Sequence record: PX853108.1 | Source of the DNA: a phage | DNA: 64,000 bases | Strand: one strand, 5' to 3' | In this document: piece after piece, positions 3,059 to 55,821 of the stretch | Layout of the letters: each line of letters begins with the position of its first letter | Numbering within the stretch: the first letter of the stretch is position 1 | Notes under the pieces: model-generated | What the model saw: the letters and a program-made list of their open reading frames with translations, nothing else | The model's database searches: none | What the model was told of the DNA's origin: nothing | Translations under genes and position numbers: made by a program

Positions 3059-3255
3059 TTACATGCCTCTCTGTTGTAAGTATAAGCATCGTGTGTGGAC
3101 ATATTGTTATGATGACGAGTTACTTCTAAGTAAGTAAGAGCATATTCATGGTCACGTTGTTCTTTCTTGGTTCGGCAATGACCACATTTATCATCCCATT
3201 GGGATACATAGCCTTTACCACATTTGCATTGCTTATCCATTAGGATTCTCCACAA
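3055..3255 (-). CDS. Cys-rich zinc-ribbon-like small protein
   Basis: 66 aa; CxC and CxxC pairs (CKCGKG...CGHC); overlaps neighbours by 4 nt. Confidence 0.4.
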   Translation of the reverse strand: MWRILMDKQCKCGKGYVSQWDDKCGHCRTKKEQRDHEYALTYLEVTRHHNNMSTHDAYTYNREACK

Positions 3256-3613
3256 AGTAGTTATACATAGCTTTTACTAGCTTCTCTTTAATAACCTCAC
3301 CATGACAAGGTTTTGGATAACAGAAGCACTGTAAGGCTAATCCTTTCTCGTCAATGGCTTTATTACCCAGACGATTAAGTTCATCCAATACAACTGGATT
3401 CCCTTTATCAATCTGTTCTTGTAACCAGACTATATACTTAGCAATTACTTGCTCTCTGGTTCCATGTTTACCAATGACAAATGGATTACCTAATGGTGAA
3501 CCACGTCCAATATACTCACCTGATTTACCGTGATGTTTATTAACAATGATAATTGGACGGGCAGATACACCCAGTAAAGCATTGGTGTCATCACCTAATG
3601 ACATAATCTTCAT
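3233..3613 (-). CDS. DUF4326-like small protein (assignment from memory of motif)
   Basis: 126 aa; motif GRGSPLGNPF followed by CFCYPKPCHG; domain family recalled, not searched. Confidence 0.45.
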   Translation of the reverse strand: MKIMSLGDDTNALLGVSARPIIIVNKHHGKSGEYIGRGSPLGNPFVIGKHGTREQVIAKYIVWLQEQIDKGNPVVLDELNRLGNKAIDEKGLALQCFCYPKPCHGEVIKEKLVKAMYNYFVENPNG

Positions 3614-4366: not shown

Positions 4367-4723
4367 TTAGTACCTCACAACATATACAGGTTTATTAAGC
4401 TTATTCATGATATCAATCATGTGCTTGGTTCCTTTGGATTTACCATCCCAGAAACATACAGCAGCATCTGCAAATTCACCCATTTCCTGGTTACGTATAT
4501 AACCAGCAGACTTTCTATGCTTATCCCAGTTAGCTGGGAAATTATGAATAGGCATTTTGTTATTAGCCCATAGGCTGTATGCAAGCATATCTGCTCCACG
4601 AGCCATACCACATACTAATTCAGGATTAGGGTCAATCTTACCTTTCTCCACTAAATCCATTAATACGGTAATCATTACTTGGATATTTACGAAGTCTCTG
4701 CCACCAGCTACTATTAGTTTCAT
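4367..4723 (-). CDS. SLOG/LOG-like (DUF2493-type) Rossmann-fold protein (assignment from memory of motif)
   Basis: 118 aa; MKLIVAGGRDF ... GMARGADMLAY ... FWDGKSKGTKHMI pattern typical of SLOG-superfamily small proteins. Confidence 0.45.
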   Translation of the reverse strand: MKLIVAGGRDFVNIQVMITVLMDLVEKGKIDPNPELVCGMARGADMLAYSLWANNKMPIHNFPANWDKHRKSAGYIRNQEMGEFADAAVCFWDGKSKGTKHMIDIMNKLNKPVYVVRY

Positions 4724-5910: not shown

Positions 5911-5954
5911 TGGTTCCTCCGTAATATTGGCAGTTAAGCACAGGTGAATAACGT

Positions 5955-6107
5955 TTACACATCTCCACCTGGTTCATCTCTACCACGAGCATCACTCCCT
6001 ATGACTGCAAACATACCAATAATTACACCTACAGCTAATAACCATGGAAATGCAGCCACTAGCAGTATCATTAATAAAGTACACAGAATCTCTGCCAGTA
6101 GCTTCAT
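5955..6107 (-). CDS. candidate small membrane protein (50 aa, two hydrophobic segments)
   Basis: Manually translated MKLLAEILCTLLMILLVAAFPWLLAVGVIIGMFAVIGSDARGRDEPGGDV; RBS AAGGATAA upstream. Confidence 0.3.
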   Translation of the reverse strand: MKLLAEILCTLLMILLVAAFPWLLAVGVIIGMFAVIGSDARGRDEPGGDV

Positions 6108-6111
6108 AGCA

Positions 6112-6375
6112 TTATCCTTTGTGTAGTTTACGGATTTGTTTACGAGTAGGTTTAGCTACAAAGAAGTGGTCATAGCATTGACCATTCTCATCTTTTACAG
6201 ATACCTGCCAACGAGCATCATAAGTCATCTTACTACCGTACATGGCCATTATGTTAATCAGCCTAGTTGGATTATAACGGTTACATATTGTACGCATAAT
6301 GGTTACTCCTTCATCTAATATAAATCTATATCTATCTGGATACTGTTTCAGTACCCTTCGTCTAAAGATACTCAA
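6112..6375 (-). CDS. hypothetical early protein
   Basis: 87 aa ORF in track. Confidence 0.4.
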   Translation of the reverse strand: MSIFRRRVLKQYPDRYRFILDEGVTIMRTICNRYNPTRLINIMAMYGSKMTYDARWQVSVKDENGQCYDHFFVAKPTRKQIRKLHKG

Positions 6376-6398
6376 AAAGTAGAAATAGCTTATCGTCT

Positions 6399-6430
6399 AG
6401 TTAAAAATAAAAGACTCCCCGAAGGGAGTC
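6399..6430 (-). terminator. rho-independent terminator (minus strand), UUCG tetraloop
   Basis: GACUCCC-UUCG-GGGAGUC followed by UUUUAUUUUUAA, just downstream of gene 6441-6821. Confidence 0.6.
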
Positions 6431-6440
6431 TAGTGATTGA

Positions 6441-6821
6441 TTAGAAAGTCAGTTTACGAGCATATTTATTCTCGTCTGCTGGGATGTCAGCAGCCTCTGC
6501 TTTCACACGACGAAGTTGAACTTGCAGGTTAATGATACCTTCCTCACCTGGTTCCAGGTTCTGAGCATACGCGATTAACTGTTCCAGCAAGTCGTTCTGT
6601 GCACAACGCATAGCACGGAAGTCAGCATTGCTGCTATTAGTAGGCAGCGGTTCCTGAGTATCCAGTGGAATACCAGTAGGCAGTGAGATGAATTTCTCAT
6701 CATCAGAGCCTTCGTTAGCTACATAACCAATGTTCAGCCAGAACTGAGCTTTTGGTTTGTCAGTTTTAGCAGTGGTAGCAGCAGCGTTAGATTGACCGAA
6801 AGTGAATTTTTGAATAGCCAT
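6441..6821 (-). CDS. early protein (126 aa), first gene of a hairpin-promoter transcription unit
   Basis: ORF in track trimmed to internal ATG at 6821 with RBS GGAGAG; about 100 nt downstream of predicted +1 at 6922. Confidence 0.5.
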
Positions 6822-6917
6822 TTTGTACTCTCCAGATTTATGTGATTTACGGGTGAACTCGTCGGTGAGAACACCCAAACAAAAGGATAAAAGTTCAATG
6901 ATTAGTGGATGCATTTA

Positions 6918-6939
6918 CATCCTTTAGATGCGGAGCATC
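6918..6939 (-). promoter_or_regulatory. N4 virion-RNAP-type hairpin promoter (CATCC-TTTA-GATGC GGA GCATC); predicted +1 at 6922
   Basis: 5-bp stem, GGA loop, -8G/-11G, +1/+2 CC; near-identical layout to recalled N4 P2 CATCC-AAAA-GAAGC GGA GCTTC. Confidence 0.65.
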
Positions 6940-7009
6940 TTTCTTTTAAAGATAGTGCGAGTTAGTTAACTTAAAGTAGATAGTTATCTACTTTTGACTA
7001 TCTATCTAA

Positions 7010-7040
7010 TGTTCAAAACAGGAGACTCCGAAGAGCCTCC
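7010..7040 (-). terminator. rho-independent terminator (minus strand), UUCG tetraloop
   Basis: GGAGGCUC-UUCG-GAGUCUCC followed by UGUUUUG, downstream of gene 7049-7372. Confidence 0.55.
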
Positions 7041-7048
7041 TATGTGAC

Positions 7049-7372
7049 TTATTCTTTAGTCAGGATGTCGATGACTTTGGAATATTCTGCGTTATAGATA
7101 CGAGCGTTCTCTGAATCCTTGCAGAAGTCCTCGATACTTTTCTTACGCAGAGTCTCAGTCATAGCTGTTTCCTCTGCCAGTTTATTAACAAAGGTATGCA
7201 TTTCTAATTTAGTACGAATGGCTTGTTTCTCTGCCATCGTACTAACATATGAATTAAGCATACCTACTGCTTTAGTTGCTGTGCTGAATGTATCTGCAAC
7301 AGTAGTAGCAGCTGAGTTAACAGTACCAAGTAAAGTTCCTGCGGTCATACGTACAGTAGCTTGAGTAGTCAT
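7049..7372 (-). CDS. early protein (107 aa), first gene downstream of outermost hairpin promoter
   Basis: ORF in track trimmed to internal ATG at 7372 with RBS GGAGAT; about 115 nt downstream of predicted +1 at 7487. Confidence 0.5.
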   Translation of the reverse strand: MTTQATVRMTAGTLLGTVNSAATTVADTFSTATKAVGMLNSYVSTMAEKQAIRTKLEMHTFVNKLAEETAMTETLRKKSIEDFCKDSENARIYNAEYSKVIDILTKE

Positions 7373-7482
7373 GATGATATCTCCAATAGTTAATGAATAA
7401 TGAGGTTGCCTGTGGATGCACAGGCACATCGTAAGGGATACATGTCCAATGGCTCATGAGATAAGGAGCTTACGATCTCGCA

Positions 7483-7967: not shown

Positions 7968-8297
7968 TTAATCCTTATACGCAGTTAAATAGGAGGGAGC
8001 ATACACCAAGTGAGGGGTTTGTAATTCATTCGTAATACCAAAGGTTAGAGAGTACTTATCCGTATTCACATGCCAGGGGGAGTACATGTAAGAGGACCAT
8101 GGTAGTTCCTTTCCTGGTTCAAGAACTTCTACAATAGTTTCCTTATTTAGTAATAAAGCTAATCCTTTAACTTCGTGTAGTGTTTGTTCATCCGGTACTA
8201 GGATAATAGGAGTGAGCCTACCTGGTACAAGGTCTTGTAAGGTTGTATGGGTAGTGGGGTTAGAACTACGAGCATAACCTATCTTAGTAAGTTTCAT
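7968..8297 (-). CDS. paralog family member 1 (109 aa), unknown function
   Basis: Shares core IILVPDEQTLHEVKGLALLL ... VEVLEPGKELPW ... SPWHVNTDKY with six neighbouring ORFs. Confidence 0.55.
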   Translation of the reverse strand: MKLTKIGYARSSNPTTHTTLQDLVPGRLTPIILVPDEQTLHEVKGLALLLNKETIVEVLEPGKELPWSSYMYSPWHVNTDKYSLTFGITNELQTPHLVYAPSYLTAYKD

Positions 8298-8331
8298 TTA
8301 ATATCCTAAGTGCTTGGGTTAGTAGCATATG

Positions 8332-8703
8332 TTAACTTTTTGTGATTACATCCCAATGAGGTGGCATATTAATATCCCAAGGAAGCATCTTTCCAGATTC
8401 AAGTATTCTTACAGACCTGAAGGAGTTACCTTCTTTTACCATACTGGTTCTTACTGTTACTGGTAAGAAGATATGAAAGTAGTCACCTTCTGGTGCAAGG
8501 TAAGTATCCCCTTCATTGAGAATAACTATCTTTGCATTGCTGTTAGTAAGAAGTTTATGCCCCTGTGCAAAGTCTGCTAACTCTCCTGGTTCCATTATTA
8601 GCGTTGGAGTTCCATAGGTCATAATGTGGATGATTGCTTTCTCCGGTTCTGAGGAATAGTGCAGTAAGTCTGTACCATTCATACCTAAGAGCTTAACGTT
8701 CAT
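8332..8703 (-). CDS. paralog family member 2 (123 aa), unknown function
   Basis: Divergent copy: KIVILNEGDTYLAPEGDYFHIFL ... VRILESGKMLPW. Confidence 0.5.
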   Translation of the reverse strand: MNVKLLGMNGTDLLHYSSEPEKAIIHIMTYGTPTLIMEPGELADFAQGHKLLTNSNAKIVILNEGDTYLAPEGDYFHIFLPVTVRTSMVKEGNSFRSVRILESGKMLPWDINMPPHWDVITKS

Positions 8704-44261: not shown

Positions 44262-44278
44262 AGTATTTCTCCTACTTT

Positions 44279-44308
44279 CAAATAAAAAAGTCCCTCCGAA
44301 GAGGGACT
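44279..44308 (-). terminator. rho-independent terminator (minus strand), UUCG tetraloop
   Basis: AGUCCCUC-UUCG-GAGGGACU followed by UUUUUUAUUU. Confidence 0.6.
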
Positions 44309-44565
44309 TAGTAGCTTTAACGCAGCTAACGAGGCTTGTATGAGTGCTAGGATTTGTAACTCCCAGCATATCCCCACCGTTTTAGCTGACGGCAAACAGA
44401 GATTGATAGTCTCAGAGGATACTTTACTCAGGCGAGTATTATAGTCTACTCATACTCACACTACCCTAACGGGTAGTATGTTTGCAATACCTAGAGTGCC
44501 GGACTGTCTCACCGGCATTGTCTTTAGAGTGCAATGCAATCAGGACTATGTTCTCTATTAATGAG

Positions 44566-44638
44566 TACCCACTACTGGATTTGAACCAGTGACCTTCCGA
44601 TTATTAGTCGGTTGCTTTCCCCGTCTAAGCTAAGTGGG
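44566..44638 (-). tRNA. tRNA-like gene, canonical cloverleaf; anticodon reads AAU by hand (Ile-type, unusual A34)
   Basis: Acceptor GCCCACT/AGTGGGT, D-arm GCTT...AAGC, anticodon arm ACCGA-CUAAUAA-UCGGA, T-arm ACTGG-TTCAAAT-CCAGT; folded by hand only. Confidence 0.55.
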
Positions 44639-44643
44639 CATAA

Positions 44644-44719
44644 ATGGTTACCCGGACAGGATTCGAACCTGTGTCCTAGTTGGTTTACTAGTGGGGCTTT
44701 ACCACTAAGCCTACCGGGT
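44644..44719 (-). tRNA. tRNA-like gene with encoded CCA and non-canonical anticodon loop (6 or 8 nt)
   Basis: Acceptor TACCCGG/CCGGGTA, D-arm GGCT...AGCC, T-arm ACAGG-TTCGAAT-CCTGT, then A-CCA; anticodon region CTAGT-AAACCA-ACTAG does not give a 7-nt loop. Confidence 0.45.
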
Positions 44720-45304
44720 ATTAATGAGTGAGTCACGCCAGACTTTAACTGGCTCCTTCTTCGCAATCCTTACATACCCCTACATAATTATTGCGTTAAG
44801 CTTTTTTGTTTAAGTTTAAGTGAAGGCGTTCTTGCTGACTCATAATAGGTTGGGCGTTTGACGAATGACTAGTTCGTTACTACCCGTTTGCCATAAGTAC
44901 CTGGCGACTTTGGTTTGAGGTGGGAGTCCGAGTCCTGTACAGCCTTACCGTTCACACATTGGCAGCGTATCTAGAATAGCACTTCCGGCAACTGGATTTA
45001 ACTGTTACACCTCAAATCTGGTAGGGGCGTCCAGAAGTCTCATCTGGTACTTACGCCGTCGTATGGTTACGACTTACCCCCATAATCTTTCTAATTCAGA
45101 GTAGCACTGCTCCACGTTTGGCCTTTGAACTCCGGGATGGATTAGTGCAATGCTACTTTGAATTAGTTGTCAGGGATTCCACCTGGCTCCATCTGTTTTT
45201 ATAGTCACTCAGATATCGTCTGGACTCTTTACTATGGGACTCACCGGCTACTTAGAGTAACTACGGTAAATATTATTCCACAGCTTACATTGATGTCGCA
45301 TCCC

Positions 45305-45661: not shown

Positions 45662-46393
45662 AGGATGTCATAATAGGGGAGGGAGGACGAGTCCCTCTTT
45701 ACCCTATGATTTAGTTTGCATGTAAGACCTAACAATTCGATGCTGTAGGTAGCTATGCTATCCGACATTTAACCCAGCCCATATAGGGGCTTATGTGATT
45801 AAAATGCTCAACATTGAGCGGTTAGTTGATAAGGGATCTGAAGCCTTATCCCAAAGATACTAACCTTTGGGATATAGCCTAAGATTCAGAAATGGCCCCT
45901 ATAGGGAGAGGCCATTGATTAACCCGAATGTTGCTTTACCTTTTATGTGATAACCCATTCTTAAAATAGTCTAGCTGACGGATGGGGGGCCACCCCTAGC
46001 GTCAGTGCCATACGGCAAAGATTAAGTTAAGAAAGGTTATGATAGGAGTTCCTATCTCAAAGGATTCTAACAGAACCCTTCACGATATTAACTACTCAAC
46101 GTGAAATTCTTTGATTCCCTCGACAGGTTCTACACCCCAGGAAAAAGCTAACTTTTCCATTTAATTTTGATTGAACCAATGGACTGGGGAGAGTATTCCA
46201 ATCCACTGGTTCGGTTGTTGTTGTTACTCTGGCGGCTTGTCACCACCGTTTTTATCACTGAGTTTCCAAAGTATAAGCACAGTGATGATAAATGCTATGT
46301 ATGGAGCCGACACGTCCAGAATCCTGATAAGCAATAGCATCAGAATTACGAACACTACCACAAATAGCAGCAGCTTCTGAGCCACCTACCAGA

Positions 46394-46835: not shown

Positions 46836-47390
46836 TTACGCCTTTAATAACTTAATAAGGTTCTGGAAAGCTGGGAGATTTACACCAGCATGGATTGCAC
46901 CGATTGCATCAGCTAAGTGCTCATTCTTATTCAGAAGTTTGCCCTTCTTATCTGTGAGCCAGTTGGCTTCAGGATAGAAGGCATGAGCAGCACGAATCAT
47001 CGTGTCTTTGGATGCGGTTTTATCACCGACCAGTGCAAGTTTGTTTTCAATTGGGGATACTTCAAAGATTGGACAACCCAATGCACGAAATGCACCTATT
47101 AATCCTACGCATACTCCATAGGATTTCATACCATTAGCAGACTGGGAGCCTACTGGTACTTCTACGAATACTGCTTTAGCAGACCGTAACCATTCCTCAC
47201 AACCAAGAAACAAATCGTGAGCGGCTTGTATATCTTTGGAGTTGGTTCGAACTTGTTTGTTGTGGTCAACTTCAGTTTGAACCAGTTTAAGTTCGACCTG
47301 CTCGAAGACGCCGGACTCAATGTCCAGCGTCCCACGAGCTAAACCCCAATTGCGGAGACTAATGTCTGCACCAACAATTGGGATTTTCAT
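46836..47390 (-). CDS. hypothetical protein, possible RNase H-fold (RuvC/YqgF-like) nuclease
   Basis: 184 aa; N-terminal MKIPIVGADIS resembles resolvase start; weak. Confidence 0.3.
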   Translation of the reverse strand: MKIPIVGADISLRNWGLARGTLDIESGVFEQVELKLVQTEVDHNKQVRTNSKDIQAAHDLFLGCEEWLRSAKAVFVEVPVGSQSANGMKSYGVCVGLIGAFRALGCPIFEVSPIENKLALVGDKTASKDTMIRAAHAFYPEANWLTDKKGKLLNKNEHLADAIGAIHAGVNLPAFQNLIKLLKA

Positions 47391-48187
47391 TAACGTTTAC
47401 CGAACAGTGATTTACCACCAGCAGGAGTAGTACTCGTGCCAGCACCTGGTTTAGGAGGTAAGCCACCTTTACCATTACCACCAGCAGAACTCTTAGTCTT
47501 GTCGCGAGTTTTGCCTTTGTTCTTCTCCAGCCATGCTGCGTAGAATACAGCCAGTTCTGGGGTCAGCTCTTTTTCAGCCTTCTCTGCTTCCTGAGCCTCG
47601 ACGACTGTGACCAGCAGTTCCGGGTGAAACACTTTCTGAATCTCGTTTACTTCACGGGTTTCACCGGAGTCAACGTAGCCGTTGTCACCTTTAACCTGCT
47701 TGGATTCCAGAACTTTTTCCAGAGCGAAGGTAACAGTCTGGTTTACCAGATCAACTGGAACCATGACAGACTTATTAACTTCTGCTTTAGCATCGAAATC
47801 GTAGACTTTAACAATCTTCTCTTCGAAGTCTGCTTCAGGCAGTTCAGTACCAGTAGCCATTAGCATCATGTCGTTAATGACAGTGTAGCCAGGCAAGAAG
47901 TATTCTTTACCGTTCTTCTCGTAAGTAGGCTTGTTGCCTTTAGCATTACCAGAAGTGAAATATACCTGAGCACGGAACTCACCAGCAGGTACGCCATCTG
48001 AGTTTTTCATGTCATCAATGATTAACTGCATCCAGTCTGCCCCAGAGTCAGCTTTGCCTACGTAAGCTACTTTTACATTACCGGTGTAGATATCGGTTTC
48101 TTTTGCACCGAAGCCACCTCCACCCAGAGAGTCTTTAACAGCTTCAACGTTTTTGGTTTTTTCTTTCAGATTACTGAACAATGACAT
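47390..48187 (-). CDS. single-stranded DNA-binding protein-like (N4 SSB-like)
   Basis: 265 aa, Gly/basic C-terminal tail, position in replication module; assignment by size and synteny only. Confidence 0.45.
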   Translation of the reverse strand: MSLFSNLKEKTKNVEAVKDSLGGGGFGAKETDIYTGNVKVAYVGKADSGADWMQLIIDDMKNSDGVPAGEFRAQVYFTSGNAKGNKPTYEKNGKEYFLPGYTVINDMMLMATGTELPEADFEEKIVKVYDFDAKAEVNKSVMVPVDLVNQTVTFALEKVLESKQVKGDNGYVDSGETREVNEIQKVFHPELLVTVVEAQEAEKAEKELTPELAVFYAAWLEKNKGKTRDKTKSSAGGNGKGGLPPKPGAGTSTTPAGGKSLFGKR

Positions 48188-48226: not shown

Positions 48227-48979
48227 TTAAGCGTAGTATTCAGCCAGATGGTCTAAGAGTTTCTGGGCATCGTTATCAATGTAAGTCTCGGACTTATCGA
48301 ACATACCCATTGGGGAACGAAGTCGTTTGCCAACAGACTTCTTGGTTGGACGGGTCTGGAATACGTGTTTATAGCCTAAGTCACGTTCTTCTTCCGTAAT
48401 TTCTAGCATCTTGTTTCCGTACTTCTCCAGTTCTTTAATGTCTACACGTTCTGCGTAAACCACTGTAGAGAAGTAGGCTTCAAGCCCGTTATTCTTAAGA
48501 GAACCTTTCACTGGGATGAATGTTTTCATCACACCGGCAGCTTCATCAAGTTCGTCTTTAGCATGTGCAGTAATGATTACTGGCTTACCAAACTTAACGA
48601 CTTTCTGTTGCAGCAGTATCTTAAAGAACTGTGCAAAATCCCCCCATGCTTTCTGCGTATTTGCAGAAGGCAATACGTACTGGGATTCCAGCATATCCAT
48701 CATAAAGGTTGCTGAGTCAATGATGATACCATCAACATCATCTGCCATTTCTCCACCAGGAGATGCAACATCAAATGCTTCCCAGATTTGGTAAGGGTCT
48801 TCAATGTTGTAAGTATTGAACTTGTTACGGAAAGGCAGACGCTTACCTGCTTCAGTATTCAGATAGAGCCAGCGTTCCTGGTTCCGGATGTTACGCAGTG
48901 ATGCTGATTTACCACTCGCAGAGAATCCTGCAATCAGGATTAGCTGAGTGTTCATATCATTGGGAATTGCTTCGGACAT
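48227..48979 (-). CDS. P-loop NTPase
   Basis: 250 aa; Walker A GFSASGKS, Walker B-like GIIIDSATF. Confidence 0.5.
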   Translation of the reverse strand: MSEAIPNDMNTQLILIAGFSASGKSASLRNIRNQERWLYLNTEAGKRLPFRNKFNTYNIEDPYQIWEAFDVASPGGEMADDVDGIIIDSATFMMDMLESQYVLPSANTQKAWGDFAQFFKILLQQKVVKFGKPVIITAHAKDELDEAAGVMKTFIPVKGSLKNNGLEAYFSTVVYAERVDIKELEKYGNKMLEITEEERDLGYKHVFQTRPTKKSVGKRLRSPMGMFDKSETYIDNDAQKLLDHLAEYYA

Positions 48980-49035: not shown

Positions 49036-51189
49036 TTACTTGCCAGCGAAGCGTTTAGCCACGGTGACCATTACGGTTGCATTCAATTCATCATCTGGTA
49101 ATGGATTAGCCAGTTTCTTATTGAATGAGTGGACGGCTTGCTGTACTTGGGCAAAATCCCAACCACTGTCAACCAATGCCAGTGCGTACTTAATCATTTG
49201 ATTATTACGATTACCGGTAGCAATACGACTAGCGAACCAACGCTCCAGATTATCCAAGGACTGTACTTCCTTCATCTGGTTCCGGAACTGCTCGTTCTTA
49301 CTAGTACGAGGAATAAAGTCACGCACGTCCAACAGATTTGCTTCAAGGTTGTAATGATAAGAACCAGTCTCGCAGGACATCCATTTCTTGGCTCGTTGGT
49401 TAGCAGATTCATCCGTTTCGAATGGTAGCCAAGACATAACGTTATTCATGAACTCTTTGTATTCCTCGGTGTCGAGGTGTAACTCATAGTTCATTGGAAT
49501 AATCAGTCGGAAGCGGTTCTCTTCATCAGAATGACGCTTAGTGGTATAGGTCATGAACTTATATTCCTTCATTAGTTCATGGCACGTATGCAGTGGTACT
49601 CCACCATCACAGTCAATAACAATCATGTTAAATCCTGGAATAACGTTCTCTTCAGAACGGTGTCCATTCTTCATGTGATGGTTTACCCAGTGCATACCGG
49701 GAGCTTGGGTTAATACATGCAACTGGTCGAACGGTACACGTTCACCAATGTAGTCATAAGCAAAGCTATCACTATATGCCACTATCATCTCATTGATGTC
49801 AGTCTCTTTCAGAGTCTCACCACGGAAGAACTCAATACCTTCGTTGAAGGTTTTCTTAATGATGATGTGCTGTTTGTAGCCCCATGCTGTAGCAAGGGTC
49901 ATCATCTCATTACGAGCTGCATTGCCACTCTTATAGAACGGCAATGACTCTAGTAAGTCAGCATGAGTCACTTCTTTACCTACAGAGGCAATGTACTTAG
50001 CCAGCTTCACATAGGCTTTCTCACGATTGAGAATACCCTGGAATGCTGCTCCAGATTCTTCTACAAGCAAAATTGCTTGTTTAAGATGAGACATCTCAAT
50101 GAATGAACTCTGGTCAACAAATGCCAGTGCTCCAGCTAGTTTAAGTGCTTTGAAGTAACGGTGGGAGATTTCAGCCTTACGAATTTCTTCGTGGTCAGCC
50201 ATAGCTTCTGCTTGTTTCTCACAATCAATTTTGTAAGTAATCAGAGCAATCCCCACTGCATCTTCTACAACCATCTTAAAGCCAAACAGGTTCGGGTCAG
50301 CCAGACTATGGAAGTGGTTAGCCCACTTACCAAGAGACTGTACGTTATCCTGCTTAATCAGGTTACGGTAGATTTCTTCCGGAGACATTGTTGCATGTGC
50401 TCGTTTGTCTAAATGCCCAATGGCAAACAGACAGCGACGTGCATATCCTGTATCGAGGAAGTCATAGAACTGGTCTTCAGTCTGACCACCATCCAGTAGC
50501 TTACTTGGTGTACCAAACAACAACAGGTTAGCTGGAGTCTTACCATCCAGTTCTTCACCACGAACACTTTCAGCAGTGTTTTTGGTTAGCTTCTGCTTAA
50601 CCTTACCCTGGTCATATAATTCCAGGAACAGGGTTAACACATCTGTGTTAGCCAGCAGGTTCGAACCAATTTCATCAATCTGAAGGTTGATTGAACCACA
50701 CCCAGCCATTAACAGCTTATGACGTAGCTGTTTAACTGCTGGTGGAGTACCAGAGTCAAACGTAAACGGATATGCCCCGGCACGTTTATACTCTGCTTCA
50801 ACTTTATCAAACTCATCATTCTGGTCTGTACCTTGACGAGCAGCACGTTCGTTAGCAATCTTCCATAAACGGTCATTTGCAATGACGGGCATGGTGTCTT
50901 CCATAAAGCGTTTACGGAAGCCAGTCATGAACCCGTCTTCAATAATATTTACCGAGTGACCTTTACCGAAACCAGATGTAGCCAACGCAATGGCGTAGAT
51001 GTTTACCGGCAGGTCACCACGGTCTTTAGTTACAATGGTTGCACCCATGCAGGATGCCATTTTAGCCAAGAAGTAGGCTACTTCGACACGGAAAAATCCC
51101 CGGTCATTATTCTGGGTTTTATTGCAGAGCACATCTACGATTTCTTCAATCGCTGGATGGTGACTGATGCCAGTAAGGTCGATACTCAT
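49036..51189 (-). CDS. DNA primase-like replication protein
   Basis: 717 aa; position between ATPase and polymerase; no motif confirmed by eye. Confidence 0.4.
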   Translation of the reverse strand: MSIDLTGISHHPAIEEIVDVLCNKTQNNDRGFFRVEVAYFLAKMASCMGATIVTKDRGDLPVNIYAIALATSGFGKGHSVNIIEDGFMTGFRKRFMEDTMPVIANDRLWKIANERAARQGTDQNDEFDKVEAEYKRAGAYPFTFDSGTPPAVKQLRHKLLMAGCGSINLQIDEIGSNLLANTDVLTLFLELYDQGKVKQKLTKNTAESVRGEELDGKTPANLLLFGTPSKLLDGGQTEDQFYDFLDTGYARRCLFAIGHLDKRAHATMSPEEIYRNLIKQDNVQSLGKWANHFHSLADPNLFGFKMVVEDAVGIALITYKIDCEKQAEAMADHEEIRKAEISHRYFKALKLAGALAFVDQSSFIEMSHLKQAILLVEESGAAFQGILNREKAYVKLAKYIASVGKEVTHADLLESLPFYKSGNAARNEMMTLATAWGYKQHIIIKKTFNEGIEFFRGETLKETDINEMIVAYSDSFAYDYIGERVPFDQLHVLTQAPGMHWVNHHMKNGHRSEENVIPGFNMIVIDCDGGVPLHTCHELMKEYKFMTYTTKRHSDEENRFRLIIPMNYELHLDTEEYKEFMNNVMSWLPFETDESANQRAKKWMSCETGSYHYNLEANLLDVRDFIPRTSKNEQFRNQMKEVQSLDNLERWFASRIATGNRNNQMIKYALALVDSGWDFAQVQQAVHSFNKKLANPLPDDELNATVMVTVAKRFAGK

Positions 51190-51701
51190 TTGATTAATCC
51201 TACGCTCTTATTAGTGACGGCATATTCTCCGAAGTATTTTACGGCAGCTAAGTCATACGCTTTGGCTGCTTCAATTGCTTCCAGGAATACACCTAAATGA
51301 ATTGATTTACGGTTTACTTTGATTTTGGCTAAGTAGTTACCCCTGAACTTAGTAACACCCATAAAACCACTGGTGTTGTTTTTATTCAGTCCACGGTTAG
51401 CACCATTGGTGCTTTTATCCGCTTCCCTTAGATTGTCTATCCAGTTGTGGTGACGTATGGTGTCTTTATGGTCTATTAAACCAGTAGGCCACATACCGTA
51501 CACGTACAACCAAGCTAACCTATGAGCAGCTTCCCGTTTGGAATCAACTGTTATGTAGAGATAACCGTCACTGTTATTGAGCGACCCAGCAACACTACCG
51601 ACAGGTGTTCGGTTACTGAGGGAGATGCGGCGAGTAAATATCCCAGTAAGTGGGTCATAATGCAGCAACTCTTTTAGCCGTTGCTGAGTCAGCTTAATCA
51701 T
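51186..51701 (-). mobile_element. free-standing HNH homing endonuclease with C-terminal AP2-type DNA-binding domain
   Basis: AHRLAWLYVYGMWPTGLIDHKDTIRHHNWIDNLR (HNH) and GFMGVTKFRGNYLAKI...GVFLEAIEAAKAYDLAAVKYFGEYA (AP2); ATGA overlaps at both ends. Confidence 0.75.
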
Positions 51702-52678
51702 GATGGAAAATATCTCTCTCTTTGTTTGCAAATGGACGCGACAGGGCAGTATAGACAACGCTTAACCTGCCCCTCCACGACCTTGATAGCACCCTTGCCA
51801 CCTTTTTCAGCCATGAAGATACGAGCAGATGCCATATCGTCAAAGTTTTTAGTACTTCTGGCTCCAGGTACATCTACCTTAGAAGCATCAGAGAAGTATT
51901 TGAACTGTGGCTCTGTTCGCCACAACTCCTCGTCAGTACATTCAGGAATTTCCTCTTCAGGTGCATTCCAGTACTTCTCAATGAGGTGAATCTTCTCTTC
52001 TACCCAACGTTCAGTCTTATCGACAGATAGCAACGGAATATCCTTATGCATAATACGATTAGCAGGATAGTTCGGATTGCTATTAGCCATGTGCTTCATG
52101 AAGTCAGTGAAGATGTAGTTAATACGAATTACATCCTCGGTAATGATGTCGTTGTGAATCCAACGATACAAGCTGCCTTGCATCTTGTGTTCATCATCAC
52201 GGGAACCAGCAACCCAGGAATAGGTTGAAGTAGACTTAAAGTCCTGCAACAGACCTTCTGTTACGATGTCGAACTTACCACCGATAGTCCAACCCTTAAC
52301 TACCCTGGTTCCACGTTGTTCAATGTAGATTGGGATAAGGTCAGGGTTAGCATCAAAGTCTGCTTCGGTTGGGTTAATGACTACTGCATCAATTACTCGT
52401 TGAGGATATCCCAACTTCTTCAATGCAGTTTTATGGCCTAACTTCCAGGCTTTCTCGATAGAATCATGTAAACCAGTACCCATTGATGTGGAGACAAAAT
52501 CCATAACATCAATCGACTGGTCACTAAGATCTACACGATGTTTCATGACGATTTGCTTAATAGGCTTAAGCAATGTAGTAACAGACAGGTACTTAGGATT
52601 GTCTACGTAATCATACTCGTCATGTAATAGCCATACAGCCAGAGCCAGTGAAACATCATGGTTGTTGGTTATCTTCAT
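51698..52678 (-). CDS. putative nuclease with C-terminal Cys cluster (Cas4/RecB-like exonuclease candidate)
   Basis: 326 aa; C-terminal CLYCPVASIC; acidic motifs LHDEYDY. Confidence 0.35.
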   Translation of the reverse strand: MKITNNHDVSLALAVWLLHDEYDYVDNPKYLSVTTLLKPIKQIVMKHRVDLSDQSIDVMDFVSTSMGTGLHDSIEKAWKLGHKTALKKLGYPQRVIDAVVINPTEADFDANPDLIPIYIEQRGTRVVKGWTIGGKFDIVTEGLLQDFKSTSTYSWVAGSRDDEHKMQGSLYRWIHNDIITEDVIRINYIFTDFMKHMANSNPNYPANRIMHKDIPLLSVDKTERWVEEKIHLIEKYWNAPEEEIPECTDEELWRTEPQFKYFSDASKVDVPGARSTKNFDDMASARIFMAEKGGKGAIKVVEGQVKRCLYCPVASICKQRERYFPS

Positions 52679-52940
52679 TATAAGCCTTTTTCAATATGCG
52701 ATTGGCATAGTGCACAATCTTCTCTGAGTCGTACACAGAAGAGTTTCCAGGTTTACCATTACCCATACGGGCAGCAGCATTTCGCCACAGAGCTTTAAAG
52801 GCACAACCTTCATCGAAGGTCATGCCCAGTGCTTGGATAATATCCTCACACTCTGCTTGGTATGGCTCTTGCTCTTCCCGTTGGGGATTCTTAATTAGAA
52901 CTACATAGTAGTTATTAAGACCACCGGAGAGCTTAGTCAT
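52656..52940 (-). CDS. hypothetical protein
   Basis: 94 aa; segment AFKALWRNAAARMGNGKPG. Confidence 0.4.
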   Translation of the reverse strand: MTKLSGGLNNYYVVLIKNPQREEQEPYQAECEDIIQALGMTFDEGCAFKALWRNAAARMGNGKPGNSSVYDSEKIVHYANRILKKAYNEDNQQP

Positions 52941-53245
52941 TATTTATCCTTAGGAATCATGTTTGCCTGGAACTCTGGTTCAGACATCAGACCCAGGTTG
53001 CTAAGAGACAGATAAACAATGTCTTTCAAGTCAACTGAGGTATCGAAACGCTGGTCCAGACTAATCTTCATGGAGTGATTGGCACGGGCCAAATCTTTAT
53101 AAGTCACATAAGGTTCATCAGTGAGCAACATTGTGTTCATGGTAAGCAGGGAACCATCATCCACTTTAGGAAGTTGGAAGACTACCTGTGCTGCTACCAT
53201 CCAATGATATTTTCTGACTACAGTTTCTTTAGTACTTTTGGTCAT
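52940..53245 (-). CDS. hypothetical protein
   Basis: 101 aa ORF, overlaps neighbours by 1-4 nt. Confidence 0.4.
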   Translation of the reverse strand: MTKSTKETVVRKYHWMVAAQVVFQLPKVDDGSLLTMNTMLLTDEPYVTYKDLARANHSMKISLDQRFDTSVDLKDIVYLSLSNLGLMSEPEFQANMIPKDK

Positions 53246-55821
53246 GCGAATGCCTTTTGAATTATTTGATGAACTTCTTCTGGGGTAGCGTGATTTGGAA
53301 TTTCAATCTCGTTAGCCCACGTTGGGTAGAACAAGGATAGTTCCCCACCCAAACCAACTTCTGGATGAGCAATATCAGGATGATCTTGCCAGTTAACAGC
53401 TTCAACCAAGTGCTTGTTCGTGAACTGCAAGGTATCCATGTTGTCACGAATCATGAAGTACTGGGCATCATGAATATGAATACTAGGACGAATATCTAAC
53501 CTGAACTCACTGGCTCTGACTTTACGCATAAACTCTGAACCAGCACGGTTATTCAGTAGACACCAGCTTTGCCCTAAAGCATTACCAGCAGTTCTGCCTT
53601 CTGCTTCTGCTTCATACGGAGTCTTACATGTCCCACGTAAAACCTGAGCCAGTAAAGGAGTACGCACTCTCAAACCGAATGCGGCAGTAACATAACCAGT
53701 TTTGGCAGCTTCGTCCAGTTTAGCCTGAACCCACATGTCGCTAACTACATAGAGGTCGTGATAACGTTTCTCTGTAGTCTTAGCCTTTTCTTCAGAGAAG
53801 CCACAGTTTTTCATTAAACCCATATACGTACCACCATAAGTAAGCAAGAAGGTTGGAGCCTTCGAGTCACTACGTAATGATTTGTACTTATGCTGGATGG
53901 AGTTAATGGATTCTACTGTGTCTTCGATATCTGGCATCTGCTCACCGAAGTAAGCATATGCACGGAGACTGTGCCCATCATAACCATCGGTATATACCTT
54001 AAGCTTCTGTGGGTCTTTAGTAGTTAAAGCTGAGATACGGTCTTCAAGGCTTGCAAAGTCCAGTCCACAAAAGATCCAACCTGGTGGGGCTTCGAAGCAT
54101 TTTTTAATCTTCTTGGCATATTTGGAGCCAGACGGTATGGTTTGCAAGTTTGGCTCGGAGGCAGATAATCTACCAGAAACCGTTCCCCCCAGATTGAGGT
54201 TGCCGAATAGATAGTGCCAGCCATCCGGTCCTGGTTGTGCATTCCTGAAAGCCGGGATGAAGCTAGTGATAATCTTATCCACGAGCTTATAGTCGATAAG
54301 TGCATTGAGCAGTTCCTTAACATCTTCACTCTGCGTATGTGTACGCAGTGCTTTAATAGTGTCACCGTCAGTAGCAGGTTGCTTGCTCTTAGTAAGACCA
54401 AGAACTGGTAAGCCAATATAATCAAATAACAGCTTCTGTAGTTGTGGACCAGAGTTTGGATTAAACTCGATGTCACAGTCAGCAAGCGTTACTTGCTTCT
54501 TCTTGAGCTTAGCATTCTTATCATCTACCCATTCCTGACGAAGCATCAGGGTAAAGTTCTTCATGAGCTTAGACTCACGAATAGTTTTCAGAGCTTGGTT
54601 CCTGTCAGTTTCCATCTCCTTAGCTACTTGGTTAACGGTATCCATATTCATAGGCATACCGGTTAATTGCATCTGGATGATGTCTTCACAAGCTGGCTTA
54701 AAGATGTTGTTGTAAACATCTAGCTGGTCATCAGCAATTAGAGTATCCCAGTGCTTCTCGTAGGTGTACCAGGTACACAAACCATCAATGAGGTTGTAGC
54801 GTAACAGCTGCTCATTGGGGATAAGACAAATGTCTTTAATATCATCCTGAGCATAGTTACCAGCATACTCCTGAGCCTGGTCTTTCAGACTAAGGTGATT
54901 GCCAGCACAACTATTAGTAGCCAGATAGGTGATTAACTTAGTGCAATCCCAGTTACGTAGCATGATTTCCATGCCATGCAGTAAGCCTTCCGTATCAATC
55001 AGGTTATCCATGAATAACTGATAGATGAGTACGTACACGTCATAGCTAATGTTGTGATACATCTGCCGTTGGGTGTACTTAATAAAGAACTCACGTAGAA
55101 GATTTCGAACAATATCATTTCTGTTGATACGCCCATAAGGTGCTTCAGTAGCCCCAGGGATTGGCTCGTAGTCCACATTAAAGGCTATGCCTTGTGTCTT
55201 ACTCCAACAGAGTGTAATTGTCCCTATACCGGCGTTATAGTGCTTTAAACCAAATGCCTCAATGTCTATAGCTAATGGCTTATTCATCTCAAGCAACTGG
55301 TCTAGCCAGGCTTTAATTTTCTCTGGAGTATCTGGATAGGCTTCAAACTCAATGATTCCCTGACCTGGTTCAGCATACTGTCCACGTATGTGGTTAAGTA
55401 ATGCATCCATACCCTGAGCAATCTTAGATTTCACTACAGGTGGATCATAGAAGACCTGCCTGTAGCTGGGTGCATAGATAACCTTCTGTTTACCCCATAC
55501 TGAGTCACAAACATAGCCGAGGTTAGCCTCTGCTTTAGCCTCTTTAGTCAGTATTTTGAAGTAGTCAGAATCGGTACAGATAATGTATTGAGTCTCTGCA
55601 TCATCCAGTACTTGTTGCAGTTCCTGCTGTATGAACTCTTTAATTTCCCTTGCAGGAGTCTTCTTCTTGCCTGGGGCAGAATGAAGTTCAATGAAGATGA
55701 AATCTTCCATGCTTAGGTCATTAGGCAGCAGGTAGGTTTTAATCATCTCCTCCCTTCGGATTTGATGACCGAGGATAGCAATAGGATACTTACCCGTATC
55801 TTGAGAGGTGATGTAACGCAT
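53242..55821 (-). CDS. family A DNA polymerase with 3'-5' exonuclease domain
   Basis: 859 aa; exo motif LAIDIEAFGL, motif A LDFASLEDRI, motif B RSDSKAPTFLLTYGGTYMGL, motif C HIHDAQY. Confidence 0.85.
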   Translation of the reverse strand: MRYITSQDTGKYPIAILGHQIRREEMIKTYLLPNDLSMEDFIFIELHSAPGKKKTPAREIKEFIQQELQQVLDDAETQYIICTDSDYFKILTKEAKAEANLGYVCDSVWGKQKVIYAPSYRQVFYDPPVVKSKIAQGMDALLNHIRGQYAEPGQGIIEFEAYPDTPEKIKAWLDQLLEMNKPLAIDIEAFGLKHYNAGIGTITLCWSKTQGIAFNVDYEPIPGATEAPYGRINRNDIVRNLLREFFIKYTQRQMYHNISYDVYVLIYQLFMDNLIDTEGLLHGMEIMLRNWDCTKLITYLATNSCAGNHLSLKDQAQEYAGNYAQDDIKDICLIPNEQLLRYNLIDGLCTWYTYEKHWDTLIADDQLDVYNNIFKPACEDIIQMQLTGMPMNMDTVNQVAKEMETDRNQALKTIRESKLMKNFTLMLRQEWVDDKNAKLKKKQVTLADCDIEFNPNSGPQLQKLLFDYIGLPVLGLTKSKQPATDGDTIKALRTHTQSEDVKELLNALIDYKLVDKIITSFIPAFRNAQPGPDGWHYLFGNLNLGGTVSGRLSASEPNLQTIPSGSKYAKKIKKCFEAPPGWIFCGLDFASLEDRISALTTKDPQKLKVYTDGYDGHSLRAYAYFGEQMPDIEDTVESINSIQHKYKSLRSDSKAPTFLLTYGGTYMGLMKNCGFSEEKAKTTEKRYHDLYVVSDMWVQAKLDEAAKTGYVTAAFGLRVRTPLLAQVLRGTCKTPYEAEAEGRTAGNALGQSWCLLNNRAGSEFMRKVRASEFRLDIRPSIHIHDAQYFMIRDNMDTLQFTNKHLVEAVNWQDHPDIAHPEVGLGGELSLFYPTWANEIEIPNHATPEEVHQIIQKAFA

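Follow-up and report, generated by a model that had tools for sequence, protein, structure and literature searches.

The window analysed here is a 64,000-nucleotide stretch of the phage sequence record PX853108.1 and belongs to a Gamaleyavirus (G7C/N4-like coliphage). Its minus strand holds, at positions 51186-51701, an open reading frame of 171 residues that the ORF list, the sequence, Pfam, PHROGs and tblastn identify as a free-standing homing endonuclease gene (HEG) combining an HNH_3 and an AP2 domain. The upstream neighbour on the same strand is a gp42-like PD-(D/E)XK (Cas4-like) protein of 326 residues (51698-52678; phrog_2139, E 9e-152, and a weak Pfam PDDEXK_1 match), annotated as exonuclease in relatives. 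The downstream one, also on the minus strand, is a gp43-like protein of 717 residues (49036-51189; phrog_2135 and Pfam PriCT_1), annotated in relatives as DNA primase. Two 4-nt ATGA overlaps, seen in the sequence and in a 22-phage junction alignment, link the three genes: the upstream one (51698-51701, minus strand) joins the exonuclease stop TGA to the HNH start ATG, and the downstream one (51186-51189, minus strand) the HNH stop TGA to the primase start ATG. A first-pass annotation of this DNA had described an HNH plus AP2 gene between a Cas4-like nuclease and a primase-like gene with ATGA overlaps at both ends, and domains, position and overlaps all agree with that description.

The gene has its own start and stop, and the exonuclease and the primase are full length with or without it. 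It lies in neither an intron nor an intein, both neighbours being complete in both alleles, and no intron was found in the window by Rfam. Its last codons contain an AGGA (51198-51201, minus strand; junction sequences) located 9-12 nt upstream of the primase ATG, which may bind ribosomes in the window and is a possible replacement site for the primase. The idea that the conserved C-terminal 'GL(I/L)' of these HEGs is kept mainly as code for this downstream Shine-Dalgarno sequence was also considered. It was rejected as the main cause because distant homologues keep 'SLGLI' and yet have a separate intergenic GAGG or GGAA before the primase.

The N-terminal region of the protein (residues 1-45; 51567-51701, minus strand), delimited from an alignment of 66 homologues and a structural model, carries a conserved L..L.YDP.TG.F motif, with Y15, G20 and F22 invariant across the homologues. 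In the AlphaFold model, which was built with an alignment of homologues from a protein-database search, it forms a helix (residues 6-12) and a beta hairpin (13-24), and probably provides HNH_3 enzymes with an additional contact to DNA. The HNH (His-Me finger) nuclease core follows (residues ~46-102; 51396-51566, minus strand) and was recognised from residues conserved in the 66 homologues. D77-H78 lie on a beta strand and are followed by N86, N90 and N99; H78 and N99 are invariant and D77 is at least 90% conserved. The core shows the beta-beta-alpha-metal fold of the HNH / His-Me finger class. It matches HNH_3 (PF13392) over residues 58-100 with 41.5 bits (E 1.1e-10), above the curated Pfam cut-off of 24.8 bits, and the protein matches phrog_99 with an E value of 1.5e-65.

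The AP2-type DNA-binding domain (residues ~112-163; 51213-51368, minus strand) consists of strands 116-119, 122-129 and 132-139 and a helix at 142-160, that is, a three-stranded antiparallel sheet packed against one helix as in the AP2 fold. The curated cut-off of AP2/ERF (PF00847), 33.3 bits, was reached neither by the whole protein (14.9 bits) nor by its C-terminal fragment (17.6 bits), and a precomputed PF00847 match exists for ~40% of the listed homologues. Significant similarity was found to experimentally solved AP2 domains, both in a single-sequence search (WRI1, E 2.8e-8; TEM1, 5.4e-4) and with the 66-sequence profile (WRI1, 2e-12; TEM1, 5.8e-8; ERF096, 5.6e-5; AtERF1, 8e-4).

The nuclease core can be compared with I-HmuI of Bacillus phage SPO1, a strand-specific nickase whose catalytic residues are D74/H75, a general-base histidine preceded by an aspartate, and the metal-binding N96. 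In this enzyme, the C-terminal DNA-binding part is reportedly a helix-turn-helix and not an AP2 domain, according to the 2004 structure paper. The DH...N positions of I-HmuI (PDB 1u3e) align with D77-H78 and N99 of the window protein, but I-HmuI is intron-encoded whereas the window gene is free-standing. The pairing of HNH and AP2 has itself been described in HEGs before, and HEGs of phages mark recombination boundaries near essential genes (PMC10448857, which cites Magnani et al. 2004 for HNH-AP2 homing endonucleases in phages, cyanobacteria and ciliates). Like the window gene, known HNH-AP2 HEGs are free-standing and located beside essential replication genes, at the boundaries of recombination blocks (PMC10448857). 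This class includes the 'IPA-HNH' proteins of the Vibrio phage ICP1, which share with the window protein an N-terminal HNH and a C-terminal AP2 domain; the ICP1 domains, however, are too divergent for Pfam HNH_3 (PMC10448857), whereas the window protein is a canonical HNH_3 member. Homologues were found in ~3,000 phage records, those from non-Schitoviridae phages being less than 60% identical to the window protein. Within the window, the gene had been singled out as the only recognisable selfish element, in agreement with our domain and Rfam scans, which were not exhaustive: no other HNH_3 or AP2 homologue was present among 400 stop-to-stop ORFs of at least 50 residues, and no HEG domain was detected in ORFs of window-specific segments or in seven packs of small ORFs.

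The occupancy of the junction was followed with an empty-site probe, which matched 57 records corresponding to 42 named phages. The site was empty in 34 of the 42, while five carried the 512-bp insert and three a different HNH-AP2 insert of ~470-475 bp. In empty sites the exonuclease TGA directly overlaps the primase ATG as ATGA, and the 22-phage junction alignment identifies this overlap with the upstream ATGA of carriers. Measured from ATGA to ATGA, the insert is exactly 512 bp, the probe spanning 914 bp in its presence versus 402 bp without it. The first-pass annotation had proposed such a comparison, and had named as evidence against its reading a gene that every relative carries and that shows no trace of mobility; most relatives were found to lack it. 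Sporadic presence at one precise site with an intact empty site is one mark of homing genes. Pattern scans of IMG/VR and metagenomes for further carriers returned known phages and empty sites only, and the carrier allele was found in none of 12 metagenome contigs matching the primase-start pattern.

The five carriers are ZQ2, PhAPEC5, PBM-2, PBM-3 and UE-M6; all have the same junction, the 516-nt ORF and the ATGA overlaps, and their gene is annotated 'HNH homing endonuclease'. The protein of vB_EcoP-ZQ2 (gp52, YP_010659989.1) is 100% identical to that of the window by tblastn, with a nucleotide identity of 99.6%, and the orthologues of PhAPEC5 (gp49), PBM-2, PBM-3 and UE-M6 are 98% identical in protein and 98.6-98.8% in nucleotides. 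On the contrary, the window flanks form a different mosaic from those of the ZQ2 group, the exonuclease being closest to St11Ph5 and the 3' part of the primase to EC1-UPM and nithesis.

The gene and its flanks have been compared over ~5-8 kb per genome in a small carrier sample (four independent lineages plus Moo19). Among carriers, nucleotide identity is 98.2-100% for the gene and 89-97% for the flanks once the UE-M6/PBM-2/PBM-3 trio, whose members are near-identical, is excluded. In the same way, dS is 0.018-0.054 for the HNH gene, 0.15-0.27 for the exonuclease and 0.29-0.49 for the primase, so that among Gamaleyavirus carriers it is 6-15 times lower in the gene than in its flanks. Carriers are polyphyletic on the neighbour-joining (NJ) trees of both flanking genes. 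The window phage groups with non-carriers on each, namely with St11Ph5 on the exonuclease tree and with the nithesis/pSb-1/ECBP1/HK2 group on the primase tree, and ZQ2 is paired with nithesis in the exonuclease tree but not in the primase tree. This discordance between the history of the gene and that of its flanks, another mark of homing genes, indicates that the gene has spread sideways and is much younger than its flanks, whose divergence among Gamaleyaviruses predates it.

Outside the genus, a ~80%-identical copy occupies the same junction in the Moovirus Moo19, and relatives with 63-69% amino acid identity are found at the exonuclease-primase junction of other N4-like contigs. These copies indicate that the HNH-AP2 lineage is old at this site. 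The dN/dS of the gene against Moo19 is 0.14, a sign of long-term purifying selection. The insertion had been called likely recent; this holds in so far as the gene is younger than the flanking-gene divergence among Gamaleyaviruses, but not for the lineage, given Moo19 and the more distant relatives.

Such antiquity also raises the possibility of an ancestral resident, inherited from the ancestor shared by Gamaleyavirus and Moovirus and no longer mobile, whose patchiness would come from deletions. Moo19 is occupied at the same junction with a gene about as similar to the window's (~80%) as its flanks are (81%), which also fits a long vertical residence in the Moo19 lineage, and the more distant relatives sit at the same site. 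Nevertheless, every loss would need to be precise, bringing back both the ATGA overlap and the non-carrier sequence of the primase start (described below) in 34 phages. An empty allele could produce such an exact loss by recombination, but this would be the reverse of homing and not simple decay. The reduced dS of the gene, the polyphyly of carriers on both flank trees and a localised tract of differences in one pair of phages also argue against it, and an ancestral resident is considered improbable. Vertical inheritance with loss was rejected on the dS and flank-tree evidence.

This pair consists of PhAPEC5, a carrier, and PhAPEC7, a non-carrier, which group together on both NJ trees. They show zero differences over exonuclease nt 1-746 and few elsewhere, and their differences cluster around the insert, at exonuclease nt 873-945 and primase nt 9-27. 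The conversion tract seen here is short, with ~100 nt upstream and 27 nt downstream. In T-even phages, the free-standing Seg and Mob HEGs ('intronless homing') are located in intergenic or overlapping ORFs and cleave a neighbouring essential gene of the HEG-less phage; flanking markers are co-converted and carriers have protective polymorphisms. This T4-type pattern of a co-converted flank with carrier-specific polymorphisms is reproduced at the window locus, although the phage family is different and so are the nuclease folds, Seg being a GIY-YIG enzyme and Mob an HNH enzyme without AP2.

The downstream end of the tract coincides with a carrier-linked patch at primase nt 9-27 (51163-51181, minus strand), defined by fixed differences between carriers and non-carriers. 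Carriers read ATC GAC CTT ACT GGC ATC AGT and empty-site phages ATT GAC CTK ACC GGA GT(A/C) (GTG/ACT). Between six carriers and 12 non-carriers, only five of 3130 comparable flank columns are fixed differences, and all of these are located within primase nt 9-26. When five variable columns were drawn at random 200,000 times, they never spanned 18 nt or less, and at least five fixed differences arose in 2 of 18,564 label permutations. PhAPEC5 and PhAPEC7 differ here at primase nt 9, 18, 21, 22 and 24-27. The patch state tracks the gene in the second genus too: Moo19 has four of the five carrier states, whereas the Moovirus-like contigs L030 and L041, with an empty site, are non-carrier at each of the four positions that are strictly linked. 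Likewise, 16 of 16 empty-site loci from IMG/VR and metagenomes (15 distinct contigs) are non-carrier at four of the five positions. The fifth change, ACC to ACT at primase nt 18, is not strictly linked, since two distinct metagenome contigs have it as well, in a total of three empty-site loci.

The patch is the downstream end of the co-converted tract. It is also a likely candidate for the recognition or cleavage site, made immune in carriers, the presumed target of the HEG being the 5' end of the primase gene. Alternatively, the patch could be a hitch-hiking donor flank or a compensation for primase initiation in the new upstream context, with the true cleavage site elsewhere or with immunity coming from the splitting of the site by the insertion alone. 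Its position in the primase ORF, +9 to +26, is one that influences initiation, it alters two primase amino acids (V8I and V/T9S), and one of its five changes exists in empty sites. However, predicted folding differs little between the native carrier (MFE -11.5 kcal/mol) and chimeras with the non-carrier patch (-10.5 and -9.9 kcal/mol), as does the probability of being unpaired at the primase start (0.59 versus 0.41 and 0.55), these values being too close to separate compensation of mRNA structure from other roles of the patch. In addition, the patch has persisted between genera, whereas synonymous sites next to it have changed. A patch foreign to immunity is thus possible, but we regard it as the weaker reading. 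Of note, the patch could be part of the mobile segment and have no immunity role.

Other HEGs of these phages are accompanied by similar changes. A second type of HNH-AP2 gene, type B (EC1-UPM gp47, PGN829.1 and U1G gp54), has the same junction and architecture, is 36% identical to the window protein and comes with both flanks changed. G7C gp41.1, between gp41 and gp42, has the same two-domain architecture with 54-55% identity and targets the 5' end of the exonuclease gene. Type B and gp41.1 each bring their own recoded flanks. There is also a broader reading with about even chances, in which the gp42-gp43 junction would be a contested site where two unrelated HNH-AP2 lineages (36% identical) replace each other, each with its own recoded flank, and in which the recoding of primase nt 9-26 in the window lineage, shared by two genera, would define both recognition site and self-immunity.

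Taken together, the ORF is very probably a free-standing HNH_3 plus AP2 HEG, resident at the gp42-gp43 junction of N4-like phages and homing in the following way. During coinfection of a carrier and a non-carrier, the AP2 domain would bind the non-carrier site, which would span the empty junction and reach ~30 nt into the primase gene, probably assisted by the N-terminal hairpin. The HNH domain would then cut the non-carrier DNA near the bound site, either by nicking, as I-HmuI does, or by a double-strand break. Repair by recombination with the carrier genome would copy in the 512-bp gene and a short flank, plausibly with the help of the phage's neighbouring PD-(D/E)XK exonuclease, Sak4-like annealase, SSB and RuvC-like resolvase. 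The carrier genome would escape, its site being interrupted by the insertion and altered by 4-5 substitutions in primase nt 9-26, and the insert would be tolerated because ATGA stop/start coupling is kept at both ends. The insert would also take over the former translation-initiation region of the primase, its own last codons offering the AGGA instead. Our literature search found no study in which cleavage or homing had been tested, biochemically or genetically, for any Gamaleyavirus HEG, this one included.

It may also be asked whether the main role of the HNH-AP2 protein is to benefit the phage, so that selection and not homing maintains it, for example as a site-specific nickase in replication or recombination, as a weapon against coinfecting genomes (marker exclusion) or as an AP2-type regulator. 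The gene is embedded in the replication/recombination module, to which its translation is coupled, its long-term dN/dS of 0.14 shows that the protein has been kept functional, and other phages have recruited HEG-derived AP2 domains as repressors (bioRxiv 10.64898/2026.02.23.707548; PMC10448857). On the contrary, 81% of close relatives have no gene at the site, so it is dispensable, and the intact catalytic residues argue against a pure DNA binder. Moreover, marker exclusion is an expected by-product of HEG cleavage and not a true rival. Service to the phage as the main role is therefore judged very unlikely, and a homing gene remains the preferred reading.

HNH-AP2 homing endonucleases are a described class and the exact protein is already annotated in the public ZQ2 genome, so the gene is ordinary for its class and brings little new biology. 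It is a dispensable mobile insert, which annotation and phage-therapy pipelines should treat as accessory. It also marks a recombination boundary inside the replication module and helps to explain the mosaic identity pattern of Gamaleyaviruses. With a candidate target of 20-30 nt and a natural carrier/non-carrier pair now named, the homing hypothesis becomes cheaply testable. If the junction is indeed a contested site, it would offer a natural system for HEG turnover and for HEG-driven mosaicism of an essential replication module, for which the near-isogenic PhAPEC5 and PhAPEC7 would be the carrier and non-carrier to study.

The window is a nearly complete genome of a Gamaleyavirus (G7C/N4-like coliphages, family Schitoviridae). 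Its segment 49036-53245 is 94.9% identical to Escherichia phage vB_EcoP-ZQ2 (ZQ2) and is matched at 88-96% by about 60 related records, and ZQ2 71790-72231 plus 1-62765 is collinear with the window. In this region, genes are all encoded on the minus strand and run from the DNA polymerase (53242-55821) through gp40-like (52940-53245) and gp41-like (52656-52940) genes, a gp42-like PD-(D/E)XK exonuclease (51698-52678), the HNH ORF under study (51186-51701), a gp43-like primase (49036-51189) and Sak4/AAA_24 (48227-48979) to an SSB-like gene (47390-48187) and a RuvC-like resolvase (46836-47390). The first-pass annotation had described an HNH-AP2 ORF between a Cas4-like nuclease and the primase with 4-nt ATGA overlaps at both junctions, and the HNH_3 and AP2 matches and the gene order bear this out. 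Both overlaps were read from the minus strand, at 51701-51698 (HNH ATG and exonuclease TGA) and at 51189-51186 (primase ATG and HNH TGA). The G+C content of the ORF is 42.8% for 42.9% in the window, so that its composition gives no sign of foreign origin.

Pfam HNH_3 covers residues 58-100 (41.5 bits against a curated threshold of 24.8, E 1.1e-10) and phrog_99 "HNH endonuclease" matches the whole protein (E 1.5e-65). Pfam AP2 reached 14.9-17.6 bits, below its cut-off of 33.3 bits. Nevertheless, solved Arabidopsis AP2 domains were matched by the single protein sequence (WRI1, E 2.8e-8; TEM1, 5.4e-4) and by a profile of 66 homologues (WRI1, 2e-12; TEM1, 5.8e-8; ERF096, 5.6e-5; AtERF1, 8e-4), which confirms the predicted C-terminal AP2 domain. 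The same profile matched the HNH homing endonuclease I-HmuI (1.6e-7). Across the 66 sequences, H78 and N99 never vary and D77 is conserved in at least 90%; since these residues align with the D-H...N active-site positions of I-HmuI, the protein looks catalytically competent. HNH plus AP2 is a described architecture of homing endonuclease genes (HEGs) (Magnani et al. 2004, as cited in PMC10448857), and the protein is 100% identical to ZQ2 gp52, annotated "putative HNH homing endonuclease".

The distribution of the gene was followed with a 402-bp probe across the exonuclease/primase junction of the insert-free phage ECBP1, which matched 57 records corresponding to 42 named phages. In 34 of the 42 the probe is unbroken, and a direct ATGA overlap joins the exonuclease TGA to the primase ATG. 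It is split by exactly 512 bp in ZQ2, PhAPEC5, PBM-2, PBM-3 and UE-M6, the insert being the HNH gene itself with 98.6-99.6% nucleotide identity to the window copy. The Shigella phage Moo19, from the separate genus Moovirus, carries a copy (80% nucleotide and 80% amino acid identity) at the same junction with the same overlaps, and in metagenomic relatives (69% and 63% amino acid identity) the neighbours are likewise a gp42-like exonuclease and a gp43-like primase. Family homologues occur in 2,989 phage records, and none outside this group reaches 60% identity.

Among Gamaleyavirus carriers, the dS of the HNH gene is 0.018-0.054, as compared with 0.15-0.27 for the exonuclease and 0.29-0.49 for the primase of the same genome pairs (Nei-Gojobori). 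The carriers fall in scattered positions on the neighbour-joining trees of the two flanking genes: on the exonuclease tree St11Ph5 is the partner of the window and nithesis that of ZQ2, PhAPEC5 groups with PhAPEC7 on both trees, and these three partners all have an empty site. PhAPEC5 and PhAPEC7 are almost isogenic at the locus: they show 49 differences over about 3.1 kb, and exonuclease nt 1-746 is identical in the two. The differences cluster around the insert (exonuclease nt 873-945 and primase nt 9-27), which reads as the signature of a short co-conversion tract. The dN/dS against Moo19 is 0.14, so long-term purifying selection has kept the protein functional. Taken together, the dS values, the trees, the PhAPEC5/PhAPEC7 tract and this selection argue against simple vertical descent. 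The earlier proposal of a selfish insertion, for which comparison with insert-free relatives was named as a check, agrees with the many empty sites, a gene dS below that of its flanks and the scattered carriers.

The flanks also display mosaicism. Between the exonuclease 3' end and primase nt ~170, across the HEG, the window and ZQ2 are about 100% identical, and a sharp mosaic boundary between the two lies a few hundred nt from the HEG: at about 50222-50521 (primase nt about 670-970) the window is 68-78% identical to ZQ2 and 88-98% to most other Gamaleyaviruses. Non-carriers fall into two strongly divergent haplotype classes at primase nt 30-210 (window about 50980-51160), with 83% identity to the window in pSb-1, ECBP1, nithesis and HK2 versus 93-94% in other empty-site phages. 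Many Moo19 states match the more divergent class, suggesting that alleles beside the HEG site are old and either balanced or recombining.

When six carriers were compared with 12 non-carriers, only five of 3,130 comparable flank columns (662 variable) were fixed differences. All five are in the primase, at nt 9, 18, 21, 22 and 26 (window 51181, 51172, 51169, 51168 and 51164), where non-carriers read ATGAGTATTGACCTKACCGGAGT and carriers ATGAGTATCGACCTTACTGGCATCAGT; no carrier-specific change was found in the exonuclease 3' end. Five variable columns picked at random were never as tightly clustered in 200,000 draws, and at least five fixed differences arose in only 2 of 18,564 phage relabellings. 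Moo19 matches the carriers at four of the five. When IMG/VR and metagenomes were scanned for the pattern, 17 loci were obtained, of which one is PhAPEC5 and one contig is present in both collections. The remaining 16 (15 distinct contigs, two of the loci Moovirus-like) are all empty and agree with the non-carriers at four of the five. Three of these empty loci (two distinct contigs) have the ACC-to-ACT change at nt 18, which is therefore not strictly linked.

The former start context of the primase, AAAGAGAGAGATATTTTCCATC directly followed by ATG, is identical in both alleles and now serves the HNH gene. Its own 3' end, GTAGGATTAATCAA before the primase ATG, provides AGGA 9-12 nt upstream of this ATG, a possible ribosome-binding site for the primase, and restores the ATGA overlap. 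In the simplest interpretation, a candidate recognition or cleavage site lies in the initial ~30 nt of the primase, and the patch of five substitutions there is a candidate immunity change. The enzyme would recognise or cut inside this segment in empty genomes, and carriers would be protected by the insertion as well as by recoding of the patch. Alternatively, the patch may compensate for what now lies upstream of the primase start, and an RNA-folding comparison left this alternative standing. Overall, the system resembles in its logic the well-established intronless homing of the T4 Seg and Mob genes; cleavage and homing by the HNH-AP2 protein are putative activities.

A second, unrelated HNH-AP2 HEG (162 aa, 36% amino acid identity) occupies the same junction in three Gamaleyaviruses, where it splits the probe by about 470-475 bp. 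On the respective segments, it is found as EC1-UPM gp47 (L003 3644-4132), as an intact copy without annotation in PGN829.1 (L019 about 2490-2990) and as U1G gp54 (L020 2540-2977), in which a 1-nt deletion truncates the AP2 domain. Beside this HEG, the exonuclease is recoded over its final ~30 nt and the primase over its initial ~30 nt, and each of the two genes is one codon shorter.

Relatives carry further HNH genes at other sites. A gp41.1-type HNH-AP2 HEG lies between gp41 and the exonuclease in G7C (L009 3764-4333) and likewise in ECBP1 (L004), Bp4 (L012) and EC1-UPM, with a ~65-nt copy of the exonuclease 5' end upstream. Over its first 100 nt, the exonuclease of these carriers has 76-79% identity to the window versus 92-96% in non-carriers, which is again the pattern of a HEG plus recoded target, at a second location. 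The gp41-like gene of the window is a short form of 94 aa that shares 23 nt with the start of the exonuclease and is common to ZQ2, HK2 and Bas96, and pSb-1 gp41 is similarly short, as compared with 155-158 aa in nithesis, G7C, PhAPEC5/7 and others. The short form has lost its C-terminal ~70 residues by a net deletion of ~205 bp right at the gp41/gp42 junction and, as this is the landing site of G7C gp41.1, HEG turnover may have left the deletion as a scar. ZQ2 gp46 (HNH; ZQ2 44263-44760), the other HNH gene of ZQ2 in the shared region, is absent from the window, its empty site being at about 46172-46194. The 23 window nt align to both sides of the insert, which is thus flanked by an imperfect short repeat, GAT(T)GAACCA...GGAGAGT. 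The annotation of PhAPEC5 (L005 about 5912-7415) places a 672-bp intron, with an HNH of its own, inside the DNA polymerase, and the PhAPEC7 (L013) polymerase and gp44/Sak4 of PhAPEC7 and Bas96 (L015) are annotated as two joined pieces; the window polymerase (859 aa) and gp44-like gene are uninterrupted.

In the window, a profile of six Gamaleyavirus/Moovirus HNH-AP2 proteins matched only the HNH ORF among 400 stop-to-stop ORFs of at least 50 aa, Pfam detected no HEG family in seven concatenated small-ORF packs, and Rfam detected two tRNAs and no intron. No nuclease was found among the ORFs of segments that ZQ2 lacks, which encode DUF4326 and SLOG-type proteins besides unknowns. Within the scope of the 400-ORF profile search, the segments lacking in ZQ2, the seven small-ORF packs and Rfam, these results agree with the claim that the gene is the only recognisable selfish element. 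The two adjacent tRNA genes (44566-44639 and 44648-44720, minus strand; 64.8 and 42 bits) lie in a region only patchily conserved with ZQ2. In the early region, ORFs at 3233-3613, 4367-4723 and 7968-8703 (minus strand) have no counterpart in ZQ2; a DUF4326 protein (E 1.4e-21) and a YspA/SLOG-family protein (E 3e-10) are encoded here, together with two ORFs that look paralogous and have no assigned function.

It has been reported that HEGs located close to essential replication genes of phages mark boundaries of recombination and form "HEG islands" (PMC10448857). The observation and interpretation of the first-pass annotation hold, and the feature is real and ordinary, and has been annotated before in another genome. 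To this, the analysis adds quantitative evidence for lateral spread of the HNH gene, a second HEG lineage competing for the exonuclease/primase junction, and a specific candidate for the target and the immunity patch.
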